The position numbers and the translations under genes are program-made. This document shows, piece by piece, positions 1 through 11,686 of a stretch of 12,723 nucleotides of DNA (positions are counted from its first letter, which is position 1; each line of letters opens with the position of its first letter). Source of the DNA: a virus (Duplodnaviria; Heunggongvirae; Uroviricota; Caudoviricetes); IMG/VR virus record IMGVR_UViG_2654587685_000022; one strand, written 5' to 3'. The notes beneath the pieces were generated by a model, which saw only the letters and a list, made by a program, of their open reading frames with translations, searched no databases and had not been told where the DNA came from.

Positions 1-20
1 CACTGTTTATCTATACAGTT
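1..20 (+). promoter_or_regulatory. Candidate LexA (SOS) box, distal copy
   Basis: caCTGTttatctatACAGtt has the CTGT-N8-ACAG dyad with an AT-rich spacer, matching the E. coli LexA-box pattern TACTGT(AT)4ACAGTA. It lies about 45 bp upstream of the dinI-like start codon and is truncated by the window edge, so flanking context is unknown. Confidence 0.55.
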
Positions 21-28
21 AAAAATAA

Positions 29-48
29 TACTGTATACAAACACAGTA
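29..48 (+). promoter_or_regulatory. LexA (SOS) box, proximal copy
   Basis: taCTGTatacaaacACAGta is a near-consensus 20-bp LexA operator (CTGT-N8-ACAG with flanking TA..TA). It ends 14 bp before the ATG at 62 and a GAGGG Shine-Dalgarno at 51-55. Confidence 0.75.
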
Positions 49-61
49 TAGAGGGACTTTT

Positions 62-310
62 ATGCGTATTGAAATCTGCATAGCCAAAGAAAAAATGACT
101 AAAATGCCAACCGGTGCTGTGGATGCGTTAAAGGAAGAATTAACCCGACGCATCAGTAAACGTTATGACGATGTAGAGGTGATCGTAAAAGCCACCAGCA
201 ACGATGGCCTTTCTGTTACACGCACCGCAGATAAGGATTCTGCAAAAACTTTTGTTCAGGAGACTCTGAAAGATACCTGGGAATCTGCTGACGAGTGGTT
301 TGTTCACTAA
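62..310 (+). CDS. dinI: DinI-like DNA damage-inducible protein (prophage-borne homolog)
   Basis: 82-aa [12 protein letters not shown]...[11 protein letters not shown]. Length, N-terminal MRIE motif and C-terminal ETWESADxWFV motif match my recollection of E. coli DinI (about 81 aa). SD GAGGG sits 6 nt upstream and two LexA boxes lie directly upstream. It is on the opposite strand to the tail module. Confidence 0.85.
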
Positions 311-544
311 TTAACACGTAAAATCGGTAACGGCTGGAAATCATTCAATACTCGCACTATCGAAAGTTCGCCAGCCAGCCGTGGCACGTTCTTGCATACG
401 ACGTGCTACGGTTTCATTTATCTCCCGAAACTCCATTTGGATTTATCCGGTGCGCCGTAAAACCCCGTCCTTCAGGGCGTGGAGGATGTCAACTGGACGC
501 ACTGGAGCTGGTCGATACTTCCGGTGCGCCAGATATTGAATGGC

Positions 545-1150
545 CTACGCCTCCGGCAGTTCAGGCCAGATGACATCCGGCGCGGTGCTGGTATCTGTTG
601 CCTGCACCGCCTTAATGTAGCCAATCCAGGCAATCAGGCTGGCTTTGTCATCGCCACTGATAATGCCTAACTGCAGTTCCGTTTGCCACAGGCTGATTTT
701 TGAATTTGCGGCGTTCAGAAGATTTGTTTTCTGTTGCTCGGCTTCGGCCACGTTCGCCGAGTGCTGTTTATCGCTATCTGTAGCCCATTTCTCACCATCC
801 CATTTGTCATATGGCGTAGATGGTGCTGTGGTGGTGGTGCCTTCCGGGTATTCTCCCAACCGTGAAACTGTCACATGCTTTCCAGTTTCCGTGCTGTAAA
901 CGGTTTCGCCGCGATGGTCTGCAACGTATTCCCAACCGGTCAAATCAGCCGTCCGGCAAACAGCAAAGCCGTCCTTTTTGCTGATTGGCGCATCCACGCA
1001 CGAATTGCCTGGAACACCAACGCCAACGGGAAGATATTCAACAGCTAAACCGATATATTCACGCGTCACGCCATCATAATTATAAACGGTGATATATCCG
1101 TCTTCCGTGACGAAACCGTTTTCATCTAATGAAATTTCTTTTGCGGTCAT
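545..1150 (-). CDS. Tail fiber assembly protein (Tfa chaperone family)
   Basis: 201-aa ORF immediately downstream of the tail fiber gene with a 1-nt TAATG stop/start overlap. This position and size are typical of Tfa/gpU-like chaperones. Family assignment is by position and general composition, not by search. Confidence 0.7.
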   Translation of the reverse strand: MTAKEISLDENGFVTEDGYITVYNYDGVTREYIGLAVEYLPVGVGVPGNSCVDAPISKKDGFAVCRTADLTGWEYVADHRGETVYSTETGKHVTVSRLGEYPEGTTTTAPSTPYDKWDGEKWATDSDKQHSANVAEAEQQKTNLLNAANSKISLWQTELQLGIISGDDKASLIAWIGYIKAVQATDTSTAPDVIWPELPEA

Positions 1151-1905
1151 TATACTGCCCTTACAATGTAGTTGAATGCGAGGTTGCGCGGGCGAGTTTC
1201 AGCACCTGTTGAACCATTCGCCTTTACGTAAACCCAACCAGAGCCATTAAAAGTGGTTGCATTAATCATATATTTAATCGGAATCATGTCAGAGTCAGGG
1301 GTATCGCCCAGCCTGTCCCTGTAAGCGGTCTCTGAACTGTATGCCATCGCTAGATCATGAGTATGCTGCTGTACTGATTGGCTCTGACCAGTTAAAACAA
1401 CGCGCCCACTATCAACCCCGCGCCCATCATCCCAGCCACGGATAAATTCACCGCGCAAATCAGGCAATTTTAACGCTGGATAAACTTTTGCCAGCTCCGG
1501 GTATTCTTCAGCAGAAAAAGGCGCACCGTTGCATTTAATCCAGCCTGTTGGCGGTGTGGCTGAAGGCCACGGAACAGGTACACCAACGGGTAACGCTGAG
1601 CCTTCTCCCAAACCAAGGTTTTCGAGAGCCGTTTTCACCGTGCCATCCGATTTGATATCACCAAACGGATTCTTGCGGCTTAACAGCAGCGCACGAAGCG
1701 CGGTAAGCAGCTGGTCGTGCCGCCCCTTCTCCAGGCTGGCACCGGATGCCTCCACAACGCTGCAAAGCTCCTCCTGCAACATGTCAAAGTAGTCATCATC
1801 CAGATCGGTGGCAGGTGTGCCGGTCTGGGGGTTACCACGGGTAAAACCGTTCTTACCCGCGCCGAACTTATCCTTCTGCGCGGTTTTCGTGTCTATACGA
1901 TGCAT
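1150..1905 (-). CDS. Short tail fiber protein (constant N-terminal part plus tail-collar-like C-terminal domain)
   Basis: 251-aa ORF with GGAG SD 7 nt upstream of the ATG. The C-terminal half (PVGVPVPWP...[23 protein letters not shown]...[17 protein letters not shown]) resembles the phage tail collar domain found in e14 StfP-type short fibers. The N-terminal roughly 97 aa end exactly at an internal hix-like site. Confidence 0.7.
1603..1628. other. Candidate Hin/Gin/Cin/Pin-family DNA invertase crossover site inside the tail fiber gene
   Basis: TTCTCCCAAACC-AA-GGTTTTCGAGAG is a 26-bp imperfect palindrome about an AA core. Each half matches 9/12 to hixL (TTCTTGAAAACC AA GGTTTTTGATAA) as I recall it. 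It encodes [10 protein letters not shown] at residues about 92-101 of the fiber, which is where Sc/Sv junction sites sit in Mu and e14 fibers. Confidence 0.5.
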
Positions 1906-2493: not shown

Positions 2494-3542
2494 GAAATCG
2501 TCCCCAGAACCGCCAGCTCATTTTTTGCAATGGAGATATTGTCCGCCGGGGCAAGCAACTGATGGCTGTATTCCCCGTTCGCACCGGAAATCGCTTCACT
2601 GATACGTGACACCTTCAGTTCTCCCTGCGGATAACCATCACGCAGCAGGAACGAACGCAACTCGGCGGTGATGGCAGCCCGTATTTCCGGTGTGTCCGGC
2701 GTCACGCGGATATGAAAATCCACTTTATGCGCCACCGGCCTGAATACATACAAATCAGAGCCTGCCACCGGGGCCAGTGGCTCGATATGTTGTCTTGCCG
2801 CCGTTTCCGTTGACTCTTCCGGAATGGGATTAATCAGGTCACTGCTGGCAATCATCACACCGACAGTCCCCGTTCCCATCCAGTGTCGGTATGTCCATGC
2901 GCGGGTAATGCCGGGCACTTCTTTAGCCCAGACGACATAGTCCCCGTCAGCCCCGCCCTGAGGCGTCCAGTAATACCGCTCAATGACGCGGGCGCGCCAC
3001 GTTTCCAGCTCTTCAGTATCAAATCCGCCTGTCAGGGTGTCAGCCACACCGGAAGACGGCAGACCATTCACCGGCGTGACCAGGATTAATGCCGTACCGT
3101 CGTCAGCGTTACCGACCGCGCCTGTAGTTGAGCAAGTGATCGGCACACGCAGGACACCACCAGTGCTGATTGCATCGGCAGTTGCCGTGTACTGAACCAG
3201 GTCATCGCGCTGAATAACACTCCCGGCGGTCACCTTCAGGCCATCGCTGACACCTTCCCAGCGCATATACCCGCTGGCAGCCGTGGCCCCCTTGCGCGGA
3301 CACCGTTTCATCGCAGCATGTCGCGCCAGCCAGGACTCATCGCACAGATCAGGCAGCATGTTCATTGCCAGATAATCGATGTAACCGTAAACCGTATGCA
3401 GCGCCGCCGCATACACCTTTGCCCGCACGTCTTCATCCATGCGCCGGAGCGTGTCGCTGACGTCCAGCCTGGCGAATAAATCGTTACGGAGCATACTGAT
3501 ATTTTCTGCCAGCGTCGGGCGCTGAAATTCACTGTCCGCCAT
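2484..3542 (-). CDS. Baseplate J-like protein (Mu gp47 / P2 gpJ family)
   Basis: 352-aa ORF in the conserved position between the gp46-like and gp48-like genes with overlapping start/stop. Size and position are as expected for baseplate J. Confidence 0.7.
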
Positions 3543-4502: not shown

Positions 4503-5581
4503 CAGAACGGGTCCTCCTGTACTCTGGCTTTTTTCTTTTTCCGCGCGCCGGGATCTTCGGGTTCAGGCAGATAAGCATCAGGCGGGCCGACACGGATTTC
4601 CGTCAGGGTGCCGTTCTGGTCCTGAGTAAACGTGACTTCCGAAACAAGCAGTTCGGTATTGTCGAAACCACAGACCGGATCAAAGACAATCACCCGCTGG
4701 TTGGGCTGCCACAGCGTACCGTTACCCTGTCGCCAGCCCTGCACCACATAGGTGGTTTCATCCGTCCGCGCCGCCCGTTGTCGGGCTTCAAAGTCAGCAC
4801 GCGCAATACAGCCTGCCCCCGTGGCCTGCCCTGTCTGCCTGATATACATCGGACGGTAACGGGCAATAAATGCGTCCTCTGTGCGGGCCCGCAGCGCGGT
4901 GGTGGTGGCCTCACCGAAATCATCGTCGTTTCCGGCACGCTGCCCCGCCACCTGGTAAACTGAAAACCGCTCCCGGATACTCTTCTCCGTATCACAGGAA
5001 AGGATGTTTTCCCCAAGTACCAGCGCGGTATGTGCCCGCGTTGAGCCAATACCGCCAATCACCAGCCTGCCGTGCGGGTCGTCGTAAGCCAGTGCCTGCT
5101 GCTGACCGAGTATTTTGTTGATTACCTCAATCACCGTTTCACCGTGATCAGGCTGGACGTCAGGAATAACACCCGACGGCGCACCGTTGTTCACCACCTC
5201 AATGCCGAAGGGCGCAGCAAGCGCCTGCGCAATCTGTACCAGCGATCGTCCGTTAAACTGTGTCGGTTCGGCTGCACAGTCAATCAGATCAGCGGTTAGA
5301 CTGCGTCCGGCAATACCAGTGCTGACCGAACGGGCATCGTAACGAACGGGCGTCGCCTCCACCCAGCCGGTGATCACCAGCTCATCACCAATCAGCACTT
5401 CCACTTTTGAACCGTTTTTAATGCGCGGCTGAAGCGTGGTGATACCCTCATCTCCCGGCCACTGGCGGGTGATCTCCACACTGAAATCCCGCGCCAGTCG
5501 TTCAACACCGGCACCGATGCGCACCGATGTCCAGCCATTCCACTCCCGGCCATTTACCCGTAGCGTGACGTTATCGTTCAT
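4502..5581 (-). CDS. Baseplate hub / tail protein (Mu gp44 P, P2 gpD family)
   Basis: 359-aa ORF directly downstream of the DNA circulation gene with a 4-nt overlap, ending in a Lys-rich tail (GARKKKKARVQEDPF). Order matches Mu N-P-Q. Confidence 0.65.
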   Translation of the reverse strand: MNDNVTLRVNGREWNGWTSVRIGAGVERLARDFSVEITRQWPGDEGITTLQPRIKNGSKVEVLIGDELVITGWVEATPVRYDARSVSTGIAGRSLTADLIDCAAEPTQFNGRSLVQIAQALAAPFGIEVVNNGAPSGVIPDVQPDHGETVIEVINKILGQQQALAYDDPHGRLVIGGIGSTRAHTALVLGENILSCDTEKSIRERFSVYQVAGQRAGNDDDFGEATTTALRARTEDAFIARYRPMYIRQTGQATGAGCIARADFEARQRAARTDETTYVVQGWRQGNGTLWQPNQRVIVFDPVCGFDNTELLVSEVTFTQDQNGTLTEIRVGPPDAYLPEPEDPGARKKKKARVQEDPF

Positions 5582-6906
5582 TGCACTGGCACCTTCAGAG
5601 GGATCACCGGCACAAAGCCGGGATGCGTAATGGCATTACGCCGGATAATGTCCGCGTCACGCGCCGCGTTATCAAACCAGGTCGCCGCCAGCACCAGCGC
5701 GGGTAAAACCTCATCCGGTGTGCGCTGAATGATCCGTGCAGACTGTTCAAGGCGCGTGTTGATATCCGCATTCAGATCTGCTTTCACCCGGCGCAGCGCC
5801 AGAAACAGCGCATCACTGGTTGTACGGGACAACTCCTTATCAATTGCCGTATTCAGTGTGTCGCGAATGTCAGTCAGTTCTTCCCACGTCGGCAGGTCAA
5901 CTGTGTTTTTCACCGCCGGTGCATTGTTCAGTGCCGGATGCGTGACGGAAGGCCAGCCAGTGCTCTGCGCAGGTGTTGTTGCCTGCCCCACTGCGGAATT
6001 CTGCATCACCGCGGAAGTTGTTGGCGCAGGCAATCGGGTGACGGCATACGCCGCTTCGCTGATTGCGGTCGTACGAAGGGTGCTGGCAACCACGTTACGC
6101 TGCTGCGTCGCCGTGGCGGTGGTTTTACTGTCCGTTTTCCAGACGCCGCGCGGTTGCAGATCGCTGCCGAGGCTGACACCGGAAAGCGTTTTGATCATGG
6201 TGACCAGGTCGCTGGCGTTACCATAAAGGCGTTTCCCGGTACGCCACATTTTCTGCACCTGCTCAACGAAATTTTTGCCTGACGATGGCGGCGGCAGAAG
6301 TACCGAGATATCCCCCTGCAACAGCCTGGCGTCATCCGATACGGCAGAATCCACCACTTTCATCGCATCAGAAACATACCCCAGCATTATGCTGGCATTA
6401 CCGATAACGTCGTTCTGCACAAAATCCGCCACACCATCGATACTGAAACCGCTGAAGCTGTCACTGATGCAGTCATCCAGTGCAGAACAGGATGACATCA
6501 GCGTCTGCGCCGTCGCCGCACCTGATGTGGGGTAAGAGAGTTCTCCTGCTTCGACAAACTTCAGGTCAAAGCGGACAATACGCCCTTCACTTTTCGATGT
6601 GCTGACCCGAACTTCCCCGTCAACACAGACTTTCAGCTCACCATATGTCGGGTGGACAAGCGTGCCGGGACCGGGTTTATTCAGCGCTTCAATCAGGCGA
6701 TCGCGCTGGTCAAAGCAGTCATCTCCCACCACATAAGCTGTGATGGACGGGCGGAAAGTGACTTTTCCCAGATCTTCGGTATAGGGCTTGTCGCGGTTCG
6801 GATATTCGTGTGTTTCCACACGGCGACCGGTTCCCGCACTTTCTTCTTCAACCTTAAACGGTACGCCGCGAAATGACGCATCCTGAAGCCTGTCTTTCCA
6901 CGTCAT
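5578..6906 (-). CDS. DNA circulation protein (Mu gp43 N-like)
   Basis: 442-aa ORF whose N-terminus MTWKDRLQDASFRGVPFKVEEESAGTGRRVETHEYPNRDKPYTEDLGK matches my memory of the conserved N-terminal domain of Mu N-type DNA circulation proteins. SD GGAG sits 5 nt upstream of the ATG. Confidence 0.75.
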   Translation of the reverse strand: MTWKDRLQDASFRGVPFKVEEESAGTGRRVETHEYPNRDKPYTEDLGKVTFRPSITAYVVGDDCFDQRDRLIEALNKPGPGTLVHPTYGELKVCVDGEVRVSTSKSEGRIVRFDLKFVEAGELSYPTSGAATAQTLMSSCSALDDCISDSFSGFSIDGVADFVQNDVIGNASIMLGYVSDAMKVVDSAVSDDARLLQGDISVLLPPPSSGKNFVEQVQKMWRTGKRLYGNASDLVTMIKTLSGVSLGSDLQPRGVWKTDSKTTATATQQRNVVASTLRTTAISEAAYAVTRLPAPTTSAVMQNSAVGQATTPAQSTGWPSVTHPALNNAPAVKNTVDLPTWEELTDIRDTLNTAIDKELSRTTSDALFLALRRVKADLNADINTRLEQSARIIQRTPDEVLPALVLAATWFDNAARDADIIRRNAITHPGFVPVIPLKVPVQ

Positions 6907-6921
6907 ATAAACTCCGGATAC

Positions 6922-6977
6922 AAAAAACCCGCCAAATCTGCTTTGTCAGTTATTTACATCGCAGAAGATGTGGCGGG
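6922..6977 (-). terminator. Candidate intrinsic terminator downstream of the AT-rich cargo ORF
   Basis: On the minus strand a two-tier hairpin (outer stem CCCGCCA/TGGCGGG at 6928-6934 and 6971-6977, inner stem TCTGC/GCAGA) is followed by a run of six U (plus-strand A6 at 6922-6927). It ends about 16 nt before the DNA circulation ATG. The loop is long, so strength is uncertain. Confidence 0.45.
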
Positions 6978-6996
6978 AACCTAATATTTTTAATTA

Positions 6997-7491
6997 CTAT
7001 CTGAGTTGAACATCAATGGAATAAATATTACCACTCTTTATAAATTTAGAATCTGTCCTTTCATCAAAAGATTCAAATGACTGTACCTTTAAAAACTTTT
7101 TCATTTTATTTTCAAAAATACTTTCATTAACACCAGTTAAATACTTGAACGCTCTACCAGCAAGGACCTCATTACTTAAATCCATTGTGTTTTTATTGTC
7201 TTTGAAAAACCAAACAATAACCTTTTGTGGGCATGATGGATTATAAACAGATATATAAAACTGCGGCTCATATTTTTCATCAGCGTCATCACTAAGCATT
7301 TCTTCAGAAGATAATTCTCTTCTGAATTCATATTGCCGCTTAGTTATTCCTTCATCCTTTATTATCTCTTGCTTAACTGGTGCAATACCTATAGAAGAGA
7401 TTAATTCTGACTCATTAAAGCTGAACTTACACTCTTCCGCAGCCAAGTTAAAAGATAAAAGTGCAGATATAAAAAAAACAAAGATACGCAT
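6997..7491 (-). CDS. Hypothetical secreted/periplasmic protein of unknown function (AT-rich moron cargo)
   Basis: ORF track gives 6997..7509 (170 aa). The third in-frame ATG (7491-7489) has a GAAGGG SD 6 nt upstream and begins MRIFVFFISALLSFNLAA-EECKF, a typical Sec signal peptide. The mature part is about 146 aa, Lys/Glu/Ser-rich with two Cys, and I recognise no family. Sampled stretches are roughly 23-37% G+C versus about 55% in flanking genes. Confidence 0.6.
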   Translation of the reverse strand: MRIFVFFISALLSFNLAAEECKFSFNESELISSIGIAPVKQEIIKDEGITKRQYEFRRELSSEEMLSDDADEKYEPQFYISVYNPSCPQKVIVWFFKDNKNTMDLSNEVLAGRAFKYLTGVNESIFENKMKKFLKVQSFESFDERTDSKFIKSGNIYSIDVQLR

Positions 7492-7522
7492 AATCATCCC
7501 TTCAATCATTTGTAAGGAATGA

Positions 7523-7528
7523 TTATAT
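7523..7528 (-). promoter_or_regulatory. Candidate sigma70 -10 element (TATAAT) for the cargo ORF
   Basis: A perfect TATAAT on the minus strand lies 13 nt upstream of the first in-frame ATG (7509) and 31 nt upstream of the SD-preceded ATG (7491), in the 81-bp gap after the tape measure stop. No good -35 hexamer was found (GGTTTT/GTTTTC at roughly 16-17 bp spacing), so the call is weak. Confidence 0.3.
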
Positions 7529-7590
7529 TAACTACTTAAAGCTGAAAACCCAAATTATGCCAGACAAAAACACATTAATCATTTTGTACA

Positions 7591-9423
7591 CTACCTGAAC
7601 CGCGTATAGCCAACATCATGGCTGACATCAAAACCGCTGGATCGCGTTTCCATAACCCGCATACCCGGAGGCGAATTCACAAAAGAGACCTTGATCTCAC
7701 CATCAACTTTTGGCACAGAAGCTTTGTTAATCATGAAGGGATTCGAGCCTGTGGCATCGGAGGCGTTGTTTGACTGAGCCGGATCCACCGCCGGATAAGG
7801 TGTGTATCCCCGCGCCGGTATTCCCGTCCCATAAGCATCATAAGCACCCGCGCCCCACTGCGCAGAGTTAATGGCATCGACCGTGTCACCGGAACTGTCG
7901 GTAAACCACTCAATAATTGGCTTCAGCTTGTCCCACATATCCTGAAACCACTTAACAACCGGTCCCCAGTTATTGATCACCATCCCCAGCGGCGACCAGG
8001 CAAAAACCTTCTTCAGAAGTTCCCAACCTGCCTCAAAATAAGGACCAATGGTTTCCCAGAGCTTCTTGAAATAAGGTCCGACAACATCCCAGTTAGTGAT
8101 AATTAATCCCGCAGCCAGAGCAATCGCCGTCGCAATCATGCCAATCGGCGTCATCGACATAATCCTGCTGACAATACTGATGGCACCGCCAACGCCCATC
8201 AATCCCAGTTTCAGAATCGCAAGACCGGCAGCAAGCCCGACGACGCCGCGAATAACCCGGGGATTTTCATCCGCAAACTTCGTGAATTTTTCCCCTAACT
8301 CCCCCAGCCATTGCGTGATATTTTTGGCGTCACCAGAAAATGCGCCGCCAATAGCCGCAAGGCCGTTAGTTGCGGTCCCCGTCATTGCCTCCCACAGGTT
8401 GGACAGCGTACCAAGCTGGGCCTGAACACGTTTATTCAGGCTGGCCTGTTTATTCATCTTCTGCTGGATCTGATCGTAGCCATCCTTTCCTTTATCGATT
8501 AGTGCATTGACCACCTGAAGGGTTTCGGCATCATCACCAAATATTGCCTTAAGTACACCTGTTCGCTTAACGTCGGTCAGTTTTCGCAGCTTTGCCAGTT
8601 GCCTGAACATGTTATCAAGACCGCCAAAACTTCCTTTGCCGTCAGTAAAATCGAGCTGTACCCCGAGTTTCTGGCGGGCCATGATTTTATTGACGTCCCT
8701 GATTTTCTTAACGCTTAATCCGGACTGGATAACTTTTCGCAGGGCGTTACCTGCCGACTCCCCGTTCATCCCCATCTGATCCATCATGACGCTGATGGGG
8801 GCAAGGCTCTGTGCAGCCTGAAGACCGTCCTTGTTCACCATCTTCAGAACAGAGCTGGTTTTAGTGAAGAAGGACAACATGTTGGTATCGTCAACACCCA
8901 GATAAAACGCCTTCTGGATAGTGTCGAACAGCCCCATCATGTCTTCTGACGCCGTTCCGGTAGCATCCTGCATCTTTGCAGCAAACTCAGCAGCCGCTTC
9001 CGGTGTTTTTTTCAGTTGTACCGCAAGATAAGCTGTCGCTTTACCCACACCGCCAAGAATATTTTCTGCCGGGATCCCCTGACGCACCAGCATCTGCATC
9101 ATGTTCTGGAAATCAGCCGTTGTACCGGGTAGCTGGTTACCCAGGCCAATAGCCAGTTTATTGATGTCCTGAAAGCTCTTTCCGACCTCGCCGTTCGCAT
9201 CCATCATGGCGACTTTCAGCCCGGTGGCGGCGTTTTCCTGATCGGCATAAGATTTCAGGGAAAGCGTCAGACCCGCTGCCAGTCCGCCACCAAGCGCCAG
9301 CCCACCCTGTGACGCTTCTTCCGCCTGGCGTTTAAATCCCCGGATTTTCTTTTGCATTTTCGACAGCGCGGGAGAAAGCCTGTCGACACCGGTGATCAAC
9401 GCCTTAAGCTCAAATTCCGCCAT
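7591..9423 (-). CDS. Tail tape measure protein
   Basis: 610-aa ORF directly after the chaperone frameshift region. It has a Gly/Ala-rich hydrophobic central segment (GVVGLAAGLAILKLGLMGVGGAISIV...IGMIATAIALAAGLIITNW) and coiled-coil-like N-terminal regions, typical of tape measure proteins. Confidence 0.8.
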   Translation of the reverse strand: MAEFELKALITGVDRLSPALSKMQKKIRGFKRQAEEASQGGLALGGGLAAGLTLSLKSYADQENAATGLKVAMMDANGEVGKSFQDINKLAIGLGNQLPGTTADFQNMMQMLVRQGIPAENILGGVGKATAYLAVQLKKTPEAAAEFAAKMQDATGTASEDMMGLFDTIQKAFYLGVDDTNMLSFFTKTSSVLKMVNKDGLQAAQSLAPISVMMDQMGMNGESAGNALRKVIQSGLSVKKIRDVNKIMARQKLGVQLDFTDGKGSFGGLDNMFRQLAKLRKLTDVKRTGVLKAIFGDDAETLQVVNALIDKGKDGYDQIQQKMNKQASLNKRVQAQLGTLSNLWEAMTGTATNGLAAIGGAFSGDAKNITQWLGELGEKFTKFADENPRVIRGVVGLAAGLAILKLGLMGVGGAISIVSRIMSMTPIGMIATAIALAAGLIITNWDVVGPYFKKLWETIGPYFEAGWELLKKVFAWSPLGMVINNWGPVVKWFQDMWDKLKPIIEWFTDSSGDTVDAINSAQWGAGAYDAYGTGIPARGYTPYPAVDPAQSNNASDATGSNPFMINKASVPKVDGEIKVSFVNSPPGMRVMETRSSGFDVSHDVGYTRFR

Positions 9424-9583: not shown

Positions 9584-9834
9584 CCAGCCACAAGCCACGC
9601 CGCTGCATTCAGGTCTGCCGGAGACATCTGGTCGACAGAGCTTTGCGGCACTTTCGCCAGCCGCACAATGTATTTCGACACCACATGCGCCAGAAGTCTG
9701 ACTGACTCATCCTGATTCATCTGGTAGGGATACCCCAGCTCGCGGACATCCTTCCCGGTGGGTTCATCAAACTCCAGTACGGAGAGTGTCTCACCATGAG
9801 CGATAATCGGTTTCTTTAACTCAAGCTCTTTCAT
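9565..9834 (-). CDS. Tail assembly chaperone (Mu gp41-like), zero-frame product
   Basis: 89-aa ORF between the tube and tape measure genes. It ends ...AAAWLVAGFFLQA over a U_UUU_UUC slippery heptamer. Confidence 0.65.
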   Translation of the reverse strand: MKELELKKPIIAHGETLSVLEFDEPTGKDVRELGYPYQMNQDESVRLLAHVVSKYIVRLAKVPQSSVDQMSPADLNAAAWLVAGFFLQA

Positions 9835-10190
9835 TACTGGTAATCCCCTTCTTCACCGTGGAACTCAAGATCAACCGTGCCTTCTTCGGCATTATGGTTC
9901 GCTTCGCCGTGCAGCCAGGCGGACGACAATACATAGACCTGACCGTTCGCCAGCTCGGCAGTGATGGTCATCTCATCAGACGAGGTGATTTTGCTCACCG
10001 GAAAATTCTTCGGCACCTTGAAGGTCCCTTTGACATAAGGCGCACGGTGAGTTTCCTTGCGGTCCACTGAACCGTCCAGGCCGATGATGTCATCATTGAC
10101 CGTCCTGTTCATGGGCACCTCAATGCCGCCGGTCAGCGATAGCTGCTGACCGTCAATTTTGAAATAACAGGTTCCCCCGATACGGGCCAT
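9834..10190 (-). CDS. Tail tube protein (Mu gp40-like)
   Basis: 118-aa ORF immediately downstream of the sheath gene with a 1-nt stop/start overlap. Size and position are typical of Mu-type tube proteins. Confidence 0.7.
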   Translation of the reverse strand: MARIGGTCYFKIDGQQLSLTGGIEVPMNRTVNDDIIGLDGSVDRKETHRAPYVKGTFKVPKNFPVSKITSSDEMTITAELANGQVYVLSSAWLHGEANHNAEEGTVDLEFHGEEGDYQ

Positions 10191-11686
10191 TATGCAGACT
10201 CCTCTGAATACTGAAGACGGAACTGGTTAACCACGGCAAAGACACGCAACTGGTTAACATAGTCAGGCGGGAACAGCGTGTTCAGGCGGTTCGGATCGCT
10301 GGCATCACGCTCCACAACCAGGTACTGCTTAAACAGTTCGTAGTTTTCCACGATCCCCGCACGCTCAAGCTGACGGTAGGTTGCCAGCAGTTCCCCTTTG
10401 ATCACCGCCGGTGTGACAATCGCCTGACCGGGACCAAAGCGGGTACCGTCGCTGGCAAGCTTGTGACGCCCGTACTTACTGGTAATGACGGATTTCAGTT
10501 TGCGCAGCACATACGCGCTGGTATGCAGCGTCTCGCTGTCGAGGTAGCTGTTATCCGCAACACCGTAAGCGTTTTTCCTGTACGTGGTGACATCACGCTG
10601 AATGCGCAGCACCCCGCTTTCGACATACGCCGTTGCCACGCCATGAGACAGCAGGGTCTGTTGTTCGGTCATCGTGAACCGTTTCCCCTTCGGCGCAGGC
10701 AGCATACCCACCAGCTCACCGGTCTGCGTGGGACGTGCCGGATCGTTGCGAATAAACACCGCTGCGCGGGCGGTACGGCTTGCCGCCAGCTCGTCGGCAG
10801 GCGTCTGGGTCTCTTTTTCGTATCCCGCCAGGGTAATGTGCTGCTGGTTAAACTGGTCACCTGCGTTCACCAGTTCTGACAGCGTGCCGATCTTTGCCGT
10901 ATACACATGACCATACAGCTGACGCGCATAGCTCCAGCGACCGCTGGTATCGTTCATCTCGGTCACCAGCGTGTTAACGGAGGCCGTGTCGTTGAACGGC
11001 AGGCCGATATAATCAAACGGCTCATCCGCCATTGCAGCCACCGCGCCGGTGAGAACCGGAGCACCCGTTCCGGCGGTACCCGTCGCCACGGCAATCTGTA
11101 CGCCCGCTGGCAGCACTTCGCCCCCACCAAAGCCGTAGTAATTGAGGCTGACAGGAATTTCATTCCCGCAAAGCCCCTTATGGCGAGCGGTCAATGTAAC
11201 CACACCAGCCGAAGATGAGGCCGTAAACGGCAGGGCCGGAACGGCATTGATGGCATCTTTGATACTGCTGGCAATCGTCGCGACGTTATCGCCGTTGGTC
11301 ACCGGTGCCTGCACGCGGGTACGTCCCACATAAACATTCACCGTGCCGGTTTCGGTTGCTGCCCCGGTCACCGTCAGCGTAACTGTTGCCGCCGCGCCTG
11401 TGGATTCAGGAACGGCAATTACATACAGTTCACCAAACGGGTCGGTCTGGCGATAAGCCTCGACCATACGCGCCAGCTGACTTCCCGCACCACAAATCTG
11501 GCGTGCATAGTCTGCCGACGGCATCAGCACCAGACTGTTGGCAACAATCTCTGCACCGTTATTGGCATGACCAATCAGCAGCGATGCTCCGCTGTCCTGT
11601 GCAGTATTCGCCACCTGGTTATCCATTTCCGCATAAAACAGCGGAACCAGCGTATTCGACGGAATGGTGTTAAAGCTTATCGTCAT
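10190..11686 (-). CDS. Contractile tail sheath protein (Mu gp39 L-like)
   Basis: 498-aa ORF (MTISFNTIPSNTLVPLFYAEMDNQ...) with an AAGGTG SD 8 nt upstream. Size and position upstream of tube, chaperone and tape measure are typical of sheath proteins. Confidence 0.8.
   Translation of the reverse strand: MTISFNTIPSNTLVPLFYAEMDNQVANTAQDSGASLLIGHANNGAEIVANSLVLMPSADYARQICGAGSQLARMVEAYRQTDPFGELYVIAVPESTGAAATVTLTVTGAATETGTVNVYVGRTRVQAPVTNGDNVATIASSIKDAINAVPALPFTASSSAGVVTLTARHKGLCGNEIPVSLNYYGFGGGEVLPAGVQIAVATGTAGTGAPVLTGAVAAMADEPFDYIGLPFNDTASVNTLVTEMNDTSGRWSYARQLYGHVYTAKIGTLSELVNAGDQFNQQHITLAGYEKETQTPADELAASRTARAAVFIRNDPARPTQTGELVGMLPAPKGKRFTMTEQQTLLSHGVATAYVESGVLRIQRDVTTYRKNAYGVADNSYLDSETLHTSAYVLRKLKSVITSKYGRHKLASDGTRFGPGQAIVTPAVIKGELLATYRQLERAGIVENYELFKQYLVVERDASDPNRLNTLFPPDYVNQLRVFAVVNQFRLQYSEESA

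Follow-up and report, generated by a model that had tools for sequence, protein, structure and literature searches.

A probable intrinsic terminator bounding the cargo slot of late operons in SfV-like lambdoid prophages

The tail operon of the window and its hairpin

The window, i.e. the whole stretch of 12,723 nucleotides analyzed in this study (IMG/VR virus record IMGVR_UViG_2654587685_000022), carries all of its long ORFs on the minus strand (Table 1). Its DNA is 98.7% identical to that of Escherichia phage SKA5 and, with the exception of one small cargo ORF, 97–98% identical to that of the Shigella phages SfV, SfII and SfI. Several complete E. coli genomes hold prophages that are 100% identical to the window. 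In strain 19-5, the prophage adjoins dusA, and the region around the hairpin described below is 100% identical to the window. Judged by annotation, SKA5 and strain 19-5 both have a Q or 'antitermination protein' gene ahead of the genes for lysis, terminase, head and tail, all on one strand, and Yersinia phage YeP2 is likewise annotated with Q upstream of the late genes. Because of this gene order and the identity to SKA5 and SfV-type phages, we classify the element as a lambdoid myovirus of the SfV type, with a late operon under Q control and a tail resembling that of Mu. At the fiber end (window 1..1905 versus L195 13081..15106), the window ORFs 1150..1905 (−) and 545..1150 (−) differ from the annotation of strain 19-5, where a recombinase/invertase gene is present and the genes for fiber and fiber assembly point the other way; this segment may be invertible or swapped.

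Table 1. Features of the window. Coordinates refer to the whole stretch.
Feature	Coordinates	Strand	Basis or remark
Tail sheath gene	11686..10190	−	Pfam match
Tube gene	10190..9834	−	Pfam match
Tail chaperone gene	between tube gene and tape-measure gene	−	Pfam match
Tail tape-measure gene, 610 aa	7591..9423	−	Pfam PhageMin_Tail; so annotated in SKA5 and strain 19-5
Cargo leader, 99 nt	7492..7590	−	sequence
Extended −10-like element TGGCATAAT	7562..7554	−	predicted from sequence
Perfect TATAAT with poor −35	7527..7522	−	predicted from sequence
Near-perfect 13-bp inverted repeat, AUAAUCAUUCCUU – 11-nt loop – AAGGGAUGAUUAU	7526..7490	−	about −14.5 kcal/mol
Cargo ORF, small, A+T-rich	7509/7491..6997	−	between tape-measure gene and N
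Cargo gene, 164 aa from MRIF... (RefSeq start), 170 aa if from 7509	6997..7491	−	RefSeq, ORF
T5 run (AACCUAAUA region)	6987..6991	+	9 nt from stem end at 6977
Terminator-like hairpin, 50 nt, interrupted	6928..6977	−	folding, −20.5 kcal/mol
Base stem of hairpin, 7 bp, 5′ arm CCCGCCA, 3′ arm UGGCGGG	6977..6971 / 6934..6928	−	sequence
Inner 5-bp helix UCUGC/GCAGA	6965..6961 with 6941..6937	−	folding
5 × 2 internal loop and 3-bp tip with 9-nt loop	within 6977..6928	−	folding
U6 tract (UUUUUUGU)	6922..6927	−	begins immediately past the last stem pair
Ribosome-binding region of N (GUAUCCGGAGUUUAUAUG)	6904..6921	−	Shine-Dalgarno GGAG 6915..6912, ATG 6906..6904
DNA circulation gene N, 442 aa	5578..6906	−	Pfam DNA_circ_N, 3.8e-34; annotations
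Baseplate genes resembling Mu P, Q, V and W, then fiber genes	downstream of N	−	Pfam matches

The tape-measure gene lies directly upstream of the cargo slot, and N is the first gene of the baseplate module 3′ of the hairpin. An earlier sequence-only reading had placed a hairpin with U-tract at 6922–6977 on the minus strand, shortly before the DNA circulation ATG, and had proposed RNA folding as a check. The coordinates proved exact, with 15 nt between the end of the U-tract and the ATG, and the sequence GUAUCC separates U6 from the Shine-Dalgarno GGAG. The fold is also stable: RNAfold gave −21.2 kcal/mol for a 71-nt stretch with the hairpin (z = −2.8; 2 of 200 shuffled sequences were as stable), the hairpin was retained in all upstream contexts tried, up to 233 nt, and the probability of the closing pairs was 0.63–1.0 in a 221-nt read-through context. 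Its stem-loop is G+C-rich, with 5 G-C pairs reported for the base stem in addition to the inner helices. It starts 20 nt past the stop codon of the cargo gene, as would suit a terminator of that gene's own; the site has a terminator without cargo, too.

A simple consensus terminator scan of the window, which allows loops of 3–8 nt, did not call this hairpin, its loop being longer. With two internal loops and 36 nt inside the base stem, the hairpin falls outside the compact format (stem of about 5–14 bp, loop of 3–8 nt), to which the junctions of relatives conform, and the efficiency of the window hairpin could be below that of these compact forms. A permissive scan for long hairpins was non-discriminating, yielding many matches of −10 to −20 kcal/mol in G+C-rich coding sequence; only the requirement of a perfect closing stem abutting T6 singled out the site 6977..6922. 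A search of positions 6700–7800 on both strands against Rfam 15 returned chance-level matches only (E ≥ 0.4, scores far under the gathering thresholds).

Tape-measure/N junctions in related phages

For a survey of homologous junctions, loci encoding relatives of N were taken from IMG/VR and from one genome per species, using the N proteins of the window, a Pantoea prophage and a Buttiauxella prophage as queries. The 192 junctions analyzed were scored for a G+C-rich hairpin with T-tract 19–25 nt before the ATG of N. Such an element was present at 174 of them, in all classes of junction, compared with 42 of 4649 random positions in the same loci (0.9%), so that the hairpin is evidently more than a chance occurrence at this place. 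It was found at all junctions with co-oriented cargo (89/89), mixed cargo (7/7) or a gap without long ORF (15/15), at 46 of the 50 empty sites, at 15 of the 16 junctions whose upstream gene was not resolved, and at 2 of the 15 that hold reverse-oriented cargo only. Three of the four exceptions among the empty sites are SfIV-type phages, in which the tape measure and the N-terminus of N are of another kind, and the fourth is a locus in which the tape-measure stop abuts N; at the corresponding junction of phage Mu, the gap is 4 nt and there is no hairpin. The surveyed hosts include E. coli, Shigella, Yersinia, Pantoea, Erwinia, Serratia, Buttiauxella, Atlantibacter and Edwardsiella, and N identity ranges from 100% to about 55%, or 46% in the separately fetched Salmonella phage ST64B.

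Named phages illustrate the element at empty sites. In SfV and SfII, both without cargo, a 60-nt spacer ends in UCCCAC-UCCG-GUGGGA followed by UUUUUUAU, at the same distance to the start of N as in the window, and the GenBank record of SfII labels this hairpin as a putative rho-independent terminator. The junction of ST64B reads ACCUGC-UCCG-GCAGGU followed by UUUCUUAU, and that of YeP2 reads CCCAC-UUCG-GUGGG followed by U6. The window and SfV cease to be homologous within the last 3–4 codons of the tape-measure gene (after ...GGCTATACGCG, the left breakpoint) and are homologous again from the T-tract on, the right-hand breakpoint of the cassette exchange; thus, the whole module including the hairpin was exchanged and the terminator-like layout was kept.

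These junctions bear on the notion that the terminator was newly imported with the window cargo and re-wired the tail operon, possibly acting in both directions. The stem sequence and the long loop are indeed specific to the window cassette and were found only with the window cargo (32 IMG/VR contigs and 85 E. coli genomes). No second copy of the loop insert of roughly 40 nt turned up when the window, 230 fetched loci and IMG/VR beyond the window cassette were searched, and a search of E. coli with the cargo found it in no other context. Nevertheless, we consider a new import highly improbable, since an equivalent terminator stands at the same distance to N without cargo and with other cargoes, and since closer homologues of the cargo (57–62% identity, from Atlantibacter and contig L193) end in the compact hairpin CCCGC-UUCG-GCGGG. 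Because of these homologues, the window hairpin looks like a derived, long-looped form of the compact CCCGC-UYCG-GCGGG-U6-8, in which about 40 nt replace the tetraloop. The view of the sequence-only reading that the cargo insertion had changed the layout of the operon was therefore not upheld: cargo-free SfV, SfII, YeP2, ST64B and 532 E. coli genomes have a hairpin with T6 at the same distance to N, which makes the layout ancestral, and the window cassette only brings its own version of the hairpin. As to bidirectional action, the T-run noted on the plus strand does exist as T5, but it lies 9 nt from the stem, whereas in a bidirectional terminator an A-tract would precede the stem without a gap. 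In addition, the plus strand has no coding sequence here and none of its genes runs towards the site, so that termination in this direction is unlikely.

Within the window cassette type, the stems are invariant in all copies, including those whose cargo is 96–98% identical overall. No covariation was found there, the few changes falling 5′ of the stem, in internal loops or past the U-tract, and support for the structure was therefore drawn from other cassette types and genera. Altogether, 80 distinct versions of the junction element were collected, with the consensus AACCCGC-TYCG-GCGGG-T6-8-AYNNCCYGGAG-N6-8-ATG and a distance from the start of the T-tract to the ATG of N of 21–23 nt in most versions (19–25 nt overall). 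In the 61 distinct tetraloop versions, standard pairs occupy 99% of the cells, versus 20–59% in slid controls. One stem pair occurs as G-C (50), A-U (10) or G-U (1), and another is U-G in 3 sequences; G-U wobbles are compatible with the sense-strand RNA only. Covariation is modest because the stem is mostly invariant. In addition, unrelated stems occupy the same position, namely CCCGCCA/UGGCGGG, UCCCAC/GUGGGA, GCCACCU/AGGUGGC, GCUCACCAGG/CUUGGUGAGC and ACCUGC/GCAGGU. That stems without homology share this place, and that pairs change by compensation or to a wobble, argues for selection on an RNA hairpin beside a U-run, which is the anatomy of a terminator.

Ribosomal protein S1 binds U-rich leaders, and the U-tract might thus serve mainly as a translation enhancer for N within an A/U-rich leader, with the hairpin keeping the tract exposed. 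The constant spacing between T-tract and ATG and the conserved Shine-Dalgarno context would suit such a role, as would the finding that junctions without hairpin are still A/U-rich before the Shine-Dalgarno sequence. The constant spacing may simply reflect homology, however, and enhancement does not explain why a perfectly conserved G+C-rich stem with a stable tetraloop abuts the U-run, which is the signature of a terminator; we regard this explanation as quite improbable. A further candidate, an anti-Shine-Dalgarno pairing of CUCCGG (loop and 3′ arm of the compact versions) with CCGGAG of the N ribosome-binding site, was rejected: upon folding of the read-through RNA, the terminator hairpin stays and this pairing never forms, and the window version is without the motif.

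The cargo slot and the cargo gene

Roughly one complete E. coli genome in five carries the tail module with this slot, which was also found in several other genera. Among 5426 complete E. coli genomes, the junction is empty in 532 and otherwise holds a 176-aa ORF without assigned function (174), the window ORF (84), a reverse-oriented, membrane-anchored protein with OB-fold (tRNA_anti-like; 54) or a bacterial PH-domain protein (24). One of the empty junctions is that of the prophage of E. coli DSM 30083 (NZ_CP033092.2:1247163-1247272). In other genera, lipoprotein-like proteins, a KilA-N protein, a ClpP-like protein and more were found as cargo. In total, at least ten unrelated families of small genes use the slot, mostly with signal peptides, lipoboxes or membrane anchors, and the G+C content of every cargo is below that of its flanks. 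The family of the window ORF is the commonest occupant, with 31 variants in 54 surveyed loci. Since equivalent terminators stand at empty and differently filled sites, the window cargo cannot have created the layout, and we regard the terminator as an ancestral boundary of the slot.

Seven junctions with reverse-oriented OB-fold cargo (L039, L042, L044, L050, L051, L073 and L083) are without terminator. In the divergent region between the cargo start and N, some 60 nt ahead of the N start codon, they have the 7-bp inverted repeat GGTAATG...CATTACC, which may be an operator.

Some loci contain stacked cassettes with a terminator copy after each and TTTTTTATTGCC repeated at both ends. Five of them (L134, L150, L152, L183 and L123) have two hairpin/T-tract blocks that enclose a second cargo, such as a KilA-N, a ClpP-like or another gene, oriented either way. 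Stacked cargo between two copies of the block with repeated TTTTTTATTGCC suggests that cargo is inserted or exchanged at the terminator itself. This raises the possibility that the block of hairpin, T-tract and ribosome-binding site, together with the 3′ end of the tape-measure gene, acts mainly at the DNA level as a pair of short homology arms, termination being secondary. Direct repeats of hairpin and TTTTTTATTGCC flanking the stacked cassettes speak for such a joint, as do the break of homology between cassette types exactly in the last tape-measure codons and at the T-tract, the near invariance of the stem CCCGC/GCGGG over a range in which N diverges to about 55% identity, and the recombination functions encoded by these phages. 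Any conserved flank could serve as an arm, though, so that the hairpin shape and the U-tract are left unexplained, and the unrelated stems and the compensatory or wobble pairs indicate that selection acts on RNA structure. We judge a predominantly recombinational function to be rather improbable; it is compatible with the terminator reading.

A combination of both would be a fixed docking joint of a cassette slot in lambdoid myoviruses of many Enterobacterales genera, where single genes are captured together with a near-identical CCCGC-UYCG-GCGGG-U6 terminator and are swapped or stacked by short-homology recombination. We put this forward tentatively, as a conjecture of rather low probability. 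If true, the slot would loosely resemble integron cassettes without a dedicated integrase, and the terminator would be kept both as insulator and as recombination arm; such a dual role would account for a terminator sequence that is much better conserved than the genes beside it.

The cargo protein of the window has a signal-peptide-like N-terminus. Its only match was PHROG 8976 ('unknown function'); searches against Pfam, PADLOC and PDB sequences gave no match. Morons, with HK97 gene 15 in the tail operon as prototype, bring their own promoter and terminator (PMC3594210). In composition and distribution the window cassette resembles a moron: between the tape-measure stop and the U-tract, the G+C content is 31%, versus 52–56% in the flanks, and the cargo occurs patchily, in 84 of about 1079 E. 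coli genomes with this tail module. The cassette as a whole was found in 84–85 of the 5426 complete genomes, at the same site every time.

The leader upstream of the cargo gene contains two promoter-like elements (Table 1), which by resemblance in sequence might supply the cargo's own promoter; a consensus promoter scan called no site in 7492..7590. The inverted repeat in the leader overlaps the TATAAT with its 5′ arm, while its 3′ arm extends across the Shine-Dalgarno sequence into the AUG at 7491, of which it includes the first two bases. An RNA begun at the TATAAT −10 would miss the 5′ arm and leave the ribosome-binding site open, while long late RNAs would mask it, and in this way translation of the cargo could be limited to the lysogenic state. 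In one variant lineage, the stem of this repeat has a C-A mismatch. Long leaders with promoter-like elements are confined to the E. coli, Atlantibacter and L193 lineages, where 89–105 nt precede the cargo, counting the flanking stop and start codons. Pantoea-type loci (L107–L171) encode cargo homologues of 164 aa with 40–46% identity that start 17–24 nt past the tape-measure stop, with a Shine-Dalgarno sequence and no space for a promoter; there, the homologue looks like an ordinary late-operon gene.

Termination, read-through and known systems

Taking the evidence together, we consider it likely that hairpin and U6 form an intrinsic (Rho-independent) terminator on the operon strand, which is the conserved right-hand boundary of the slot in SfV/ST64B-like lambdoid myoviruses and is passed with the help of Q. 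The element is probably a real and functional terminator of the moron type; that transcription actually ends here we infer from its anatomy and conservation. In the repressed prophage, the hairpin and U-tract would end transcripts that start in or upstream of the slot (for the window, transcripts begun in the leader with promoter-like elements before the 164-aa cargo gene), and the baseplate and fiber genes would thereby be silent. Upon induction, polymerase from the late promoter, modified by the phage Q antiterminator, would pass this hairpin and the other terminators of the late operon. It had been argued from the sequence that the genes behind the hairpin need either read-through or a separate promoter. 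This logic is sound, and since the 15 nt before N are too short for a promoter, the baseplate and fiber genes must be expressed by read-through, so that N and the genes downstream of it would be made from the same long transcript.

Read-through at the hairpin itself would depend on Q, which is known to let polymerase pass terminators in the SfII/SfV/SfIV family (PMC3851460). On the late-operon strand of SKA5, other intergenic terminator-like hairpins occur at record positions 5394..5381, 2772..2759 and 34337..34325. The first immediately follows the Q gene, the second comes after the lysis-region genes, and the third sits immediately behind the major capsid gene. The one after Q reads CTCGC-TTCG-GCGGG followed by GTTTTT and lies in a position like that of tR′.

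Terminating an independently transcribed moron cannot be the whole purpose of the hairpin, because it is kept at empty sites and after the promoter-less cargo of Pantoea-type phages. An additional role in the phage backbone may exist, be it attenuation, protection of 3′ ends or service as a recombination arm. Carried further, the hairpin might be a backbone element independent of cargo, either a partial attenuator that lowers transcription into the baseplate genes during lytic growth and so sets stoichiometry, or a stability element that, once the message for sheath, tube and tape measure has been processed, shields its 3′ end. Its retention at 46 of 50 empty sites over large divergence, and behind Pantoea-type cargo, fits such an element. 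Yet in contractile tails the biggest step in required copy number follows the tube gene, not the tape measure. Several relatives also build tails without the hairpin: it is absent from SfIV-type phages, from phages with reverse-oriented cargo, from the locus with abutting tape-measure stop and N, and from Mu, and is thus dispensable for tails. Moreover, Q-modified polymerase is expected to ignore intrinsic terminators, as in lambda (PMC3851460). We therefore hold a backbone function as the main explanation to be unlikely and retain the terminator with Q-dependent read-through.

For the window, the hairpin matters little, being the expected 3′ end of an accessory cassette in a Q-antiterminated late operon. 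A by-product of the analysis is the map of a well-defined slot that is marked by an easily recognised terminator. The cargo is mostly envelope-targeted proteins without assigned function, which makes the slot a good place for superinfection-exclusion or defence genes, and the conserved terminator is a simple handle to search for such slots.

Among known systems, the moron HK97 gene 15, reportedly described by Juhala et al. in 2000 and Cumby et al. in 2012, comes close to the window cargo. Both are small accessory genes of low G+C content beside the tape-measure gene in a lambdoid tail operon, both are closed by a terminator and absent from close relatives, and both can be likened as genes for envelope proteins. 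Gene 15 lies before the tape-measure gene and the window cargo after it. For gene 15, there is experimental proof of the promoter, of expression in the prophage and of a superinfection-exclusion function of the product. Also, unlike in HK97, the terminator of the window pre-exists at empty sites.

A precedent for a moron that affects read-through into a downstream structural gene is the ant moron of P22 between gene 16 and the tailspike gene (PMC2629481). Like the slot, it is a single hypervariable accessory site in a morphogenetic operon with many alternative contents in syntenic phages. The P22 region differs in phage type and position, comprises several genes and has its own repressors, whereas the slot mostly holds single small genes followed by near-identical terminators.

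In the lambda-type late operon with its terminator tR′, terminators within the operon are tolerated, as in the phage group of the window, for which annotation likewise places a Q-family gene upstream on one strand with a tR′-like hairpin after Q. The direct counterpart at an empty site is the SfII terminator (KC736978, 11928–11966), which has the same junction, strand, distance to N, T6 and ribosome-binding block. SfII has a compact 6-bp stem with tetraloop, UCCCAC-UCCG-GUGGGA, and no cargo, in contrast to the interrupted 50-nt hairpin of the window. The window hairpin is thus an ordinary feature, a sequence variant of an element already annotated in SfII within a well-understood regulatory setting.
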